Assembly: GCA_039960995.1 (NCBI GenBank)
Contig: JBDVKF010000020.1
Span: 8,948 to 72,947 of the forward strand
Length of the DNA stretch: 64,000 bases
Direction: 5' to 3'
Origin: Paracoccaceae bacterium
Lineage (GTDB): Bacteria; Pseudomonadota; Alphaproteobacteria; Rhodobacterales; Rhodobacteraceae
In this document: in pieces, positions 12,001-15,000 of the stretch
How the letters are laid out: every line of letters begins with the position of its first letter
How positions within the stretch are numbered: the stretch's first letter is position 1
Position numbers: made by a program

Positions 12001-15000
12001 TTAAGACGGGCAAGGCGGTTATTTGCGGCTTCCGAATTCATGATAAAATTTCCTTAAATAGCGCCAAATACTCATGCATCGATTTCAAGGAACGCTTTTT
12101 CGTCATGCAGGCGTTTGATGGCGCGTTCATTGATCCGCCAATGTTGCCCGGGGTCGAAGTCTGTTCCAAAGACTTCCTCGATCTTTGCTGGGTCAGGGAA
12201 CCGAACAAGAAGGATCGGCGTCGGATAGGGCCCATTCCCCATTATCATAGCATTCATATGGGTTTCGCCTTCGATCAAATAGTGTTTCTCAGCGATCAAG
12301 GCGAGCACGATTTCAGGACGTTTTTCGGGCAGTTCTTGTGTCATGGTCTAACGTCCTTCCTTCAGATTTTTAATCTCTTCCCGCATTAGCTTTATTTCAT
12401 CATGCAGTGCTTTAATGTGATCATCTACTTGGTCGGTTTCTTCTTTAACAACCTGCTTCATCGTATCGAACTGGGCTTGTGTGTCATCTTCCACCGCCGA
12501 TTGCATGGTGTTCACAAGAAGGCCAATAAACAGATTCAGCACCGAAAACGCGGTGATCACGATAAAAGGCACAAAAAAGGCCCATGCAAACGGGAATTGC
12601 TCCATTACCGGCCTAACGATCCCCATCGACCAGCTTTCCAAAGTCATGATCTGGAAAAGCGTATAAAGGGATCGACCTAATGTTCCGAACCACTCATCAA
12701 ATGCGGCGCCAAACATGATCGTGGCCATCACCCCAAAGACGTAAAATACAATTGAGATCATGATGATCACAGCGCCCATACCAGGCAAGGCATCCAACAA
12801 CGCCTGAACCACAGACCGCATTTGCGGAACAACCGAAAGCACTCGCATTGCCCGAATGACCCTCAGGCCCCGCAGCGCTGACAGACCTTGCGAATCCGGT
12901 AACAAGCCGACCCCAACAACCATTAGATCGAAAATATTCCACGCGTTTCTAAAGAACGCCAACCCATAGGCGTAAAGCTTGAGCGAAAGTTCGATCACAA
13001 AGATCGTCAGAACAACAGTGTCCAAGACGCGCAACAGTCCCCCAAACCGTGCATCCACCCAAGCAGAAGTCGAAAGCCCAAGGGTGATCCCATTGAAAAT
13101 GATAATGCCCAGGATCGCATTGCGGATGATATCACGCTCAATGAATTGACGGGCTTTTTCCCGTGACATCAAACTCTTTGTTCCAGAAATTTCCTTCATC
13201 TCAAATATCTACCTCAACCTACAGGTGTCTGATATTTCCATTATTGGTAGGTTACTTGCTGAGTTTCTTTATTGCTTTTATCGCAACCGCAGAGGCTTTG
13301 ATAAATCCACCTAATACACCAGAAACTTTCGTACCGCGTTCCATATATGGCGCACCCTCAAGTTCCTGTATCAAGCCCCGTGCCGAAGAAAGAGACTTTT
13401 CAACATCTTTTGCACTGTAATCGGCCATCCGATCTAGCGATGCGTTCATCGTTTTAAGTTGGGCTTCCACGGACTTCAGTTCGCCACTTCCACGCAATGC
13501 CGCTCCGGGATCTTCTTTCTTGATCTTTTCCATCTGCATCTCGATCTCGCCTTTCTTGATCAGCAGCTGGTCACGTTTCGCCTCACAAGCCCTCGCAAAG
13601 CGAATTGTTTCATCAATTTTCGTGCTTAGTTCACCAAGGCTTTTGTTGTAGGTCTTATAGTTTCCAATGAATTCGTTGGACAACTTAAGACCATCTTGCG
13701 CAGATTTAGCTGCAGCACTCAGACACCCAAGCACGGCAACCGCAATCGCTGCGGCACCAACAGGCGGGGCCATAATGGCCGTGGCAATCGTCACGCCTAA
13801 CCCAACAACAATCGCACCTGCCTTAAAGATTAGCTTACGCTTATCTTTCAAAACGGACTTGGCTGTCTTGTCCATCGATTTTAATGCATCAGAATGAGCA
13901 TCGCCTACGAATTTATCCATTTGCGATTTGAACTCAGCTTCAGCCTTAATTTTCAGCTCATTCTCTAGCCTTGTTGTTTCCGTCTTAACTTTGGACTGAC
14001 CGTCCGAAAGAGCCAGTTTCTCAATAGCCTTTTCAGCCTTGTTCAGCTCGGACGTAAAGTTGGATATCGCTTTGGTTTCAAACTTCATCCACTTGGAAGC
14101 AATAGCTTTACCGACTCCAACGAGGTAGCGATCGAAAACGTCCTTCTCTGTCTTCTTGTTGAGCGTCCCTTCTACTTTGAAGACTGCATTGTAGTCTCCA
14201 GAGACGTTCAAAACGCCCTTCTTTGAAGTAAGTCGGATTGTGCCAGAAGCACTCGCTCCGTCCGCTGTCATCTTATATTGCATCGGGACTTTCCCTGCTT
14301 GAAGCTAGATTCAATTGAATGCGTAGGTGAATTCGCTCTTTTTGACATCAACAGCCACTTTGCTGATCTCTTCCCCTTCCATCATACGCTTTAGAAACTC
14401 CGCGCTGATGTCGGGCAACATTGTATTGGTCACGATCGCGTCGATCATGCGACCGCCGCTTTCGATTTCCTGACAGCGATCTACGATCAGCTGAACAACC
14501 TCGTCCGTATATTCGAATGGAACACCATGCGCTTCAGTCACGCGGCGCTTGATCTTGTTCAGTTGAATCTTGGATATTTCTGCAATCATGTGGGGGCTCA
14601 GCGGATAATACGGGATCGTCACCAACCGCCCAAGCAATGCAGGCGGGAAAATCTCAAGCAAGGGATCGCGTAACGCTTTGGCCAACCCTTCGGGTTCAGG
14701 CAAAAGCTCTGGATCACTGCACATATCCATAACCAAATCGGTGCCCGCATTCGTTGTCAGCAGGATCAGTGTGTTTTTGAAATCAATCGTACGTCCTTCA
14801 CCGTCTTCCATCACACCCTTGTCAAAGACCTGAAAGAAAATCTCGTGGACGTCTGGATGGGCCTTTTCAACCTCATCCAAAAGCACGACCGAATAAGGCT
14901 TACGCCGCACCGCTTCGGTAAGCACACCACCTTCGCCATACCCGACATAGCCAGGAGGCGCGCCTTTCAAACTGCTGACGGTGTGCGCCTCTTGATACTC

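Follow-up and report, generated by a model that had tools for sequence, protein, structure and literature searches.

A voltage-gated sodium channel gene inherited with a type VI secretion system lineage of Roseobacter-group bacteria

A 64,000-nucleotide stretch of DNA from a Paracoccaceae bacterium (assembly GCA_039960995.1, contig JBDVKF010000020.1, positions 8,948 to 72,947; hereafter, the window) encodes a voltage-gated sodium channel of the bacterial BacNaV family, whose gene (NaV) lies between the clpV and vgrG genes of a type VI secretion system (T6SS) cluster. We show that the clade to which this channel belongs is exclusive to the T6SS: its members are found only in the clpV-vgrG slot of the H1-like (i3) cluster named “T6SS1” in Roseobacter-group Rhodobacterales. 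By its genomic behavior the channel would be a lineage-specific accessory component, akin to the Tag proteins, rather than a part of the core machine. We tentatively favor, at somewhat less than an even chance, the reading that this accessory is co-expressed with the T6SS and couples T6SS activity to membrane voltage and Na+ entry, by a mechanism of which we can offer a conjectural outline. That a T6SS lineage has such a channel built in and co-evolving with it is apparently unreported: in a literature search that paired T6SS with terms for sodium channels or with Roseobacter genera, no paper on a BacNaV-T6SS link was found. The Roseobacter T6SS1, with its TssB-TssC fusion protein TssCL, has been described as an organization common to Leisingera, Ruegeria, and Tateyamaria, and in that account the channel and its upstream neighbor (here, X) are drawn as grey “other” genes and an ion channel is never mentioned (Suria et al. 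2022, PMC9515649).

The channel gene (12348..13199, minus strand) opens with an ATG codon and specifies a 283-aa, six-transmembrane (6-TM) voltage-gated Na+ channel subunit; translation could as plausibly start at Met11 (13169), and the first 25 residues are poorly conserved within the T6SS-linked clade. The sequence-only reading had called it a bona fide BacNaV on account of its S4 segment, selectivity filter, and C-terminal coiled coil, and all of these features were borne out. The Pfam Ion_trans model matches residues 27-237 (2.3e-36), and a phmmer search of PDB sequences recovered NavMs (5hvx; 1.3e-78) across residues 11-265 and full-length NavAb (5vb2, 3rvy; ~1e-70) across residues 19-278, the C-terminal domain included, with BLASTP identities of 49% to NavMs and 44% to NavAb. 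The four gating charges of S4 (R-GL-R-VI-R-AM-R, the segment RGLRVIRAMR) occupy residues 110-119 (12843..12872, minus strand), and the RxxRxxRxxR pattern is kept by 27 of the 27 T6SS-linked homologues. The filter TLESWSM (residues 186-192; 12624..12644, minus strand) is identical in NavAb and NavMs and invariant among the 40 homologues examined, while the S2 and S3 motifs FVIELSLK and NIFD, which align with the F56/E59/R63/D80 counter-charges of NavAb, are retained in all members of the clade. Toward the C terminus, a heptad coiled coil with the a/d positions I-L-I-M-I-L (residues 258-281; 12357..12428, minus strand) aligns to the NavAb C-terminal domain, and a conserved neck motif, ETD-x-VD, is present. 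The protein therefore combines the 6-TM Ion_trans architecture, the S4 arginines with the S2/S3 charges, and a Na+-type filter with what alignment and heptad pattern indicate to be the neck and coiled-coil tail of the family. This cannot be a chance open reading frame (ORF), and to judge from these features the product of the gene is a bacterial voltage-gated Na+ channel of the canonical homotetramer type, an ordinary member of its family. A depolarization-activated, Na+-selective current is predicted from the identity to NavMs and the intact motifs.

The genomic placement of the channel is the more unusual aspect. Every close relative that we examined (57-96% identity) is situated in the clpV-vgrG slot, at about 50 loci from at least 12 genera on plasmids and one chromosome, although this count is overstated in that many of the loci come from closely related Leisingera strains and are not phylogenetically independent. 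The best homologues (70-96% identical) are from Leisingera, Tateyamaria, Ruegeria, Pukyongiella, Epibacterium, and other Roseobacter-group genera and are often plasmid-borne. In PLSDB, a channel relative is found on 28 plasmids, 22 of them from Rhodobacterales, and exactly these 22 carry the channel beside clpV among the 23 plasmids whose ClpV has at least 78% identity. The annotated contexts (Leisingera sp. M527, L. caerulea, Ruegeria conchae, Qingshengfaniella alkalisoli, and Parasedimentitalea psychrophila) all read tssH, hypothetical protein, ion transporter, large “sheath” gene, vgrG, DUF6931, PAAR, and tagH. The same slot layout is repeated in Pukyongiella (on a 3.9-Mb chromosome), Tateyamaria, and Epibacterium, as well as in metagenome contigs recovered via either the channel or X. 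When a species-dereplicated genome collection was scanned by exact peptide patterns, 22 loci were returned: the channels with at least 66% identity are directly downstream of clpV in 11 of 11 cases (Sulfitobacter, Ruegeria [3], Sedimentitalea, Szabonella, Phaeovulum, Leisingera, and metagenome-assembled genomes [MAGs]), and those with at most 51% identity are without an adjacent T6SS, again in 11 of 11. Distant plasmid-borne copies in Skermanella and Peteryoungia are likewise unlinked to a T6SS.

A test blind to the channel was made by anchoring a metagenome scan on the ClpV N-domain, where clusters were assigned to the lineage if their ClpV had at least 75% identity and at least 3 kb of downstream sequence was available. 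In this sample, 5 of 8 lineage clusters carry the channel, and in the other 3 clpV abuts vgrG; outside the lineage (ClpV below 75%), it is found in none of 34 clusters. The sequence-only reading had asked whether the channel is conserved between clpV and vgrG across related clusters. It is so in every related cluster that carries a channel, across many genera, but a minority subclade of otherwise syntenic clusters is devoid of it, which amounts in part to the case that this reading had named as a refutation. The channel has no match to any T6SS family and is missing from all clusters sampled outside the lineage and from one subclade within it, which is not the distribution of a core component; its orientation, conserved position, and co-inheritance are those of a lineage accessory of the Tag type.

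Two apparent additional cases were set aside. In a Sedimenticola MAG (L032), a distant BacNaV with 47% identity is found directly downstream of the gene for the NhaA Na+/H+ antiporter (L032:1813-4025), but its linkage to a T6SS was rejected as an independent instance: purE, purK, a biotin carboxylase gene, and a carboxylase-domain gene intervene, and the near end of the T6SS (pppA-tagF-tssM) is oriented opposite to the channel. The nhaA neighborhood is a Na+-cycle context, in contrast to the T6SS context of the Roseobacter channels. The second candidate, a “52% identical” channel adjacent to clpV on Parasedimentitalea marina pW43D, turned out to be a pseudogene with in-frame stops and frameshifts. 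At this locus (L033:1308-8987), the channel, TssCL, VgrG, and PAAR genes are interrupted and clpV, X, tagH, and tssK-M are intact, a pattern that reflects either localized decay of the region from the slot to the spike or assembly errors.

The histories of the channel and the secretion machine run in parallel. In the ClpV tree, the Roseobacter lineage, across which ClpV identity is 78-84%, forms a single clade (100/100 bootstrap). Its basal pair includes locus L054, which is channel-positive with a channel 57% identical to that of the window, and the clusters that lack a channel group together (70/100) within the channel-positive ones. In the channel tree, 95 of 100 neighbor-joining (NJ) bootstraps support the monophyly of the T6SS-linked channels, L054 is again basal, and NavMs and a Loktanella channel fall just outside the clade. 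Pairwise distances of ClpV and the channel are strongly correlated (Mantel r=0.885, a value attained in none of 2000 permutations). A single acquisition at the base of the T6SS lineage, vertical co-inheritance, and a single loss of the whole insert are the simplest account of this history.

The channel is also under purifying selection as strong as that on the baseplate genes, with a ratio of nonsynonymous to synonymous substitution rates (dN/dS) of 0.06-0.21 in seven pairs and tssF and tssG in the same range. Median identities of lineage members to the window proteins place the channel (71%) amid the machine: TssC has 85%, ClpV 80%, TssB 77%, and TssK 72%, followed below the channel by TssF and TagJ (65% each), TssE (59%), TssG (57%), TssL (55%), TagH (51%), DUF6931 (44%), Hcp (43%), and VgrG (35%). 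Within the clade, the pore module is 92% and the voltage sensor 78% conserved, while the filter and the gating charges are invariant, and the gene is, by this pattern of conservation, maintained as a working channel. A dip in GC content at 11-15 kb was considered as a sign of recent foreign origin and discounted: the GC content at third codon positions (GC3) of the channel (0.56) equals that of the core genes (X has 0.49), and the low total GC is due to membrane-protein composition.

These data bear on the possibility, raised by the sequence-only reading, that the channel is passenger cargo that was inserted once into a recombination hot spot and has been hitch-hiking since, with a T6SS-independent role for Na+ or voltage, as in motility, chemotaxis, or pH homeostasis. 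That the slot accepts unrelated cargo, that a subclade lost the insert and kept its T6SS, and that the unlinked Sedimenticola relative is found in a Na+-cycle context beside nhaA all speak for it. On the other hand, in about 50 loci on plasmids or a chromosome no member of the clade is found outside the slot, and the channel has stayed intact through repeated replacement or loss of the genes around it. It shows purifying selection and co-divergence equal to those of core genes, and its stop codon overlaps the start of a sheath-like gene. Moreover, the sole decayed copy, that of pW43D, lies among broken TssCL, VgrG, and PAAR genes. Given the single acquisition, the co-divergence with ClpV, and the purifying selection, a pure passenger is distinctly unlikely.

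The host cluster is a complete, one-directional, H1-like T6SS (65..25019, minus strand; NCBIfam and Pfam assignments) with the order tssA-B-C-hcp-tagJ-tssE-F-G-clpV-[X-NaV-p90]-vgrG-DUF6931-tagH-tssK-L-M-tagF-pppA, which we take to be the gene order of the Pseudomonas aeruginosa H1 cluster. The slot is bounded upstream by clpV/tssH (14311..17013, minus strand; Pfam AAA_2, ClpB_D2-small, and Clp_N) and downstream by vgrG/tssI (9909..12041, minus strand; Phage_GPD, Phage_base_V, and Gp5_trimer_C). Its genes are tightly packed, with gaps of 27 nt between clpV and X, 52 nt between X and the channel, 3 nt between the channel and p90, and 30 nt between p90 and vgrG; the last three spacings, as well as the slot itself, had been given exactly in the sequence-only reading. 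A scan of 9000-17500 for promoters and terminators gave counts below those of shuffled sequence, with no site in any intergenic gap. Such low counts are compatible with a single transcript but no proof of one, and the scan is uninformative. In most genomes of the relatives, the start of TssCL overlaps the stop of the channel by ~8 nt. From this arrangement, the channel is probably co-transcribed with the firing machinery and, through the TssCL overlap, would in most genomes be translationally coupled to it.

Across the relatives, the consensus order of the slot is clpV, X, NaV, TssCL, (p90), and vgrG, and the insert made up of these elements ranges from 2.3 to 8 kb. The channel is its only constant member, around which X, TssCL, and p90 are exchanged or lost. 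TssCL is missing from the clade of the window, where p90 follows the channel instead. It is a protein with two VipA domains and one VipB domain, with an acidic linker of ~800 aa between the domains made up of dozens of degenerate “D-x-L-D-x-L-L-G-x-L” repeats. In Leisingera sp. M527 (L005:9815-14440), residues 161-1150, the linker included, comprise 990 residues with ~30% Asp+Glu, and TssCL is likewise found in L006, L007, L009, L012-L016, L018, L020, L026, L035, L123, and L125. The translational coupling of a polyanionic, sheath-like protein to a cation channel is a curious pairing. The product of p90 (12072..12344, minus strand; 90 aa) is a small soluble protein encoded directly upstream of vgrG, starting 3 nt after the channel stop. 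It has no Pfam or NCBIfam family and a single near-identical cluster in a big protein search. Homologues with 28-31% identity, also just before vgrG, are present in Qingshengfaniella and Szabonella, and 99-aa ORFs occupy its position in the metagenome contig L042 and in Tateyamaria, these being matched by position alone. In general, p90 is sporadic among the relatives and, where present, is just upstream of vgrG.

X (13252..14283, minus strand) is the most variable member of the slot. In the window it is a lysine-rich, helical protein of 343 aa with a central glycine-zipper hydrophobic hairpin at residues ~150-195; its counterparts in the relatives are likewise lysine-rich and helical, 300-530 aa in length, and frequently have such a hairpin. 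X of the window has no Pfam or NCBIfam family above threshold and no tblastn match in PLSDB, and two X families of the relatives show only weak, below-cut-off matches to DUF2207_C (3e-4 and 0.04). The big protein search returned only 8 homologue clusters of the window X family, all of them encoded between clpV and the channel gene. There are at least three X families, mutually unrelated by BLAST and hhalign, with the window X reaching an hhalign probability of at most 7% against the other two. X is absent from Sulfitobacter M05, a Sedimentitalea MAG, and Pukyongiella, and it is duplicated in one genome. Between two Leisingera strains, X has a nonsynonymous divergence (dN) of 0.92 as against 0.03-0.04 in core genes, and a swap of X between Leisingera strains has left the channel unchanged. 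In Leisingera sp. M527, X shares 80% identity with the allele of Ruegeria lacuscaerulensis but only ~20% with that of L. caerulea (L005/L006/L016). X is shuffled horizontally in the manner of a polymorphic toxin cassette. An AlphaFold2 (AF2) model of X is all-helical after a small N-terminal sheet, with a predicted local distance difference test (pLDDT) score of 57, and in a Foldseek search against PDB the best match had E=0.14, with AhlB, AhlC, YaxB, and PspA among insignificant matches only. That X is a pore-former is accordingly a lead and not a finding. In the nearest non-Roseobacter T6SS relative, on plasmid pBN1 of Paraburkholderia aromaticivorans (L010:11743-13398), the slot holds a TcdA/TcdB-type glycosyltransferase and a YopT-type cysteine protease, which look like candidate anti-eukaryotic effectors.

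A toxin-like neighbor brings up self-protection. The channel might provide a generic, non-cognate “electrical” immunity or damage control against membrane-depolarizing toxins, such as X delivered by kin, or it might be the cognate immunity protein of X, as the sequence-only reading had entertained. By way of example, a transient collapse of the membrane potential might deprive voltage-dependent pore-formers of what they need to insert. X is immediately upstream of the channel with no other candidate immunity ORF between the two. Several of its families have the central hairpin, a feature also of depolarizing T6SS effectors such as Tse4; its alleles shuffle like those of polymorphic toxins; and the slot houses effectors in Paraburkholderia. 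A generic mechanism would additionally explain the constancy of the channel beside a variable X, as well as the “orphan” channels without X. Against the cognate form stands the turnover of X, whose several unrelated families and absence from three lineages contrast with a channel that tracks ClpV rather than X: obligate pairing and co-variation with X are not what we see, and the persistence of the channel where X has been swapped for an unrelated protein or is missing argues against a cognate immunity pair. It counts against either form that X is a putative toxin, with no family, a low-confidence model, and no fold match better than E=0.1. Furthermore, a Na+ channel that opens on depolarization should worsen ion-leak toxicity, and the full conservation of voltage sensor and filter exceeds the needs of an immunity protein that acts by binding. 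On balance, we regard self-protection as unlikely.

The same neighborhood could instead encode a channel complex, a self-contained membrane-signaling unit that merely shares a promoter with the T6SS and in which X, perhaps together with p90, is an auxiliary or regulatory channel subunit and not a T6SS effector. The adjacency with short gaps, the membrane hairpins in several X families, and the restriction of the family of the 343-aa protein to the side of this channel are in keeping with such a complex. However, the X families are mutually unrelated and dispensable, p90 tracks vgrG/TssCL and not the channel, and to our knowledge the BacNaVs studied so far are homotetramers without auxiliary subunits. 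Consequently, we consider this very improbable.

With regard to the functional coupling of the channel to the T6SS, which we tentatively favor, the following sequence of events may be envisaged. The channel would be closed at the resting potential in seawater. Partial depolarization of the inner membrane, whether by envelope damage, the attack of a neighbor, or the firing of the system itself, would open it and admit Na+, so that a small electrical disturbance would be converted into a large, brief Na+/voltage signal. For the T6SS, this signal might then serve to trigger or modulate assembly or firing. It could be read by the Fha/PpkA/PppA/TagF checkpoint, of which the window has Fha, TagF, and PppA (a PpkA-like kinase follows pppA in L. 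caerulea), or by TssCL, the hyper-acidic sheath-fusion protein encoded next after the channel in most genomes. A more specific proposition, namely, that the system is an electrically gated secretion weapon in which the channel is a built-in sensor or amplifier that converts depolarization (through attack, contact, or envelope damage) into a Na+ pulse triggering or timing T6SS assembly or firing, strikes us as rather unlikely.

Several considerations weigh against functional coupling. In a nested subclade (the SC52 plasmid, L105, and L051, and also L052), clpV abuts vgrG and the T6SS is otherwise complete; the machine hence does not need the channel, which is an accessory and not a core part. 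The slot is a cargo insertion hot spot, as indicated by the glycosyltransferase and protease of the Paraburkholderia plasmid. The window, being without TssCL, lacks one of the two proposed readers. We know of no T6SS component that senses Na+ or voltage, and the read-out step is therefore speculative. All the trees are NJ trees only, and the count of ~50 loci is inflated by the Leisingera strains. Finally, co-transcription, channel activity, and an effect on the T6SS are all deduced from genomes and should be understood as predictions.

Beyond the slot, the cluster of the window has other peculiarities. It lacks the PAAR gene that the relatives have between DUF6931 and tagH (9225-9266 in the window). 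Its Hcp (21295-21831) has 42-44% identity to those of the relatives or is undetectable in them, and its VgrG (9909-12041) has 33-39%, whereas the rest of the machine has 57-86%; it is as if the tube/spike set had been exchanged. Divergently oriented upstream of tssA is a gene for a MotA/TolQ/ExbB-like proton channel (25700-26332, plus strand), and at the matching position L. caerulea has an ExbB gene and two ExbD genes (L122:5698-7300), by which a second ion-driven membrane module is conserved beside this T6SS.

Outside the T6SS, the window encodes a Rep3-type initiator, parA, and parB, and the matches of the remaining DNA in PLSDB by megablast are confined to the replication-initiator gene (75-78% identity). 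On the basis of these genes and matches, the window is a Rhodobacterales plasmid. It further codes for three caspase-domain (Peptidase_C14) proteins (40528-42315, plus strand; 50325-51806, minus strand; 53556-55100, plus strand), one of which also has Sel1 and peptidoglycan-binding domains, and caspase-family genes likewise flank the T6SS on the L. caerulea and Qingshengfaniella plasmids. In a region with glycosyltransferase genes (34555-39363 and 42312-43819, both plus strand), GT2 and GT41 domains are joined in a 1602-aa protein, adjoining which are sugar epimerases/dehydratases and a tandem pair of FGE-sulfatase-like genes; the whole has the look of a plasmid-borne island for surface glycans or protein glycosylation. 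Three large ORFs have no Pfam or NCBIfam family: 46270-50049 (minus strand; 1259 aa), 27158-28714 (plus strand; 518 aa), and 59535-61019 (plus strand; 494 aa), the first of which sits within a region of strongly negative AT skew.

BacNaVs are structurally among the best-studied of ion channels, yet their role for the organisms that own them is largely unknown. The link of an entire BacNaV clade with a single cellular machine, through gene order, co-divergence, and selection, is an apparently unreported clue to their function in bacteria. The T6SS field gains an unexpected class of accessory gene and, with it, the prospect that membrane voltage or Na+ may be an input or output of firing in the Roseobacters, a group of ecological importance that lives with algae, in biofilms, and in animal symbioses. 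The carriers include culturable and genetically tractable marine bacteria of the genera Leisingera, Ruegeria, and Epibacterium, in which these proposals are directly testable. Were the electrically gated weapon to prove true, it would be the first case of an ion channel acting as a working part of a T6SS and would give a marine BacNaV its first defined cellular role; were self-protection to prove true, a non-cognate “electrical” immunity would be new.

In relation to known systems, the cluster of the window is of the same type as the Roseobacter T6SS1 but a variant of it without TssCL and without the PAAR gene (PMC9515649). The Roseobacter cluster has been assigned to the same subtype as the P. 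aeruginosa H1 system, and tssJ is absent from it (Suria 2022, PMC9515649). As a protein, the channel resembles other BacNaVs (NavMs of Magnetococcus marinus, NavAb of Arcobacter butzleri, and NaChBac) in its single 6-TM domain of ~280 aa, its four S4 arginines, S2/S3 counter-charges, and TLESWSM filter, and its neck and coiled-coil tail. It differs from them in genomic context: the present clade is encoded solely within a T6SS operon, whereas the channels with at most 51% identity that we examined are sited elsewhere, for instance beside nhaA or plasmid rep genes. In the cited literature that we found, the sole BacNaV role shown genetically is that in motility and chemotaxis as well as the homeostasis of pH in an alkaliphilic Bacillus (NaVBP). 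NaVBP of Bacillus pseudofirmus belongs to the same channel family, and its role is bound up with Na+ cycling in a Na+-rich habitat.

The X-channel pair also recalls pore-forming effector-immunity pairs such as Tse4/Tsi4, Ssp6/Sip6, and VasX/TsiV2, in which, in or near a T6SS, a gene for a membrane-active helical protein that has a glycine-zipper hairpin precedes one for an inner-membrane protein. T6SS immunity proteins are typically small and co-vary with their toxins. Here, in contrast, the product of the downstream gene is an entire voltage-gated channel, which varies independently of X and is retained in its absence. The closest parallel for the machine as a whole is the H1-T6SS of P. aeruginosa, with which it shares the orders tssA-B-C-hcp-tagJ-tssE-F-G-clpV-vgrG and fha-tssK-L-M-tagF-pppA; however, H1 has no channel, and here the insert parts clpV from vgrG. 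H1 is governed by the post-translational checkpoint TagQRST-PpkA-Fha1-PppA, together with TagF, and fires upon membrane perturbation. No TagQRST genes are annotated beside the Leisingera cluster, and a voltage-gated channel that acts as a perturbation sensor would be an input device different from that of H1.

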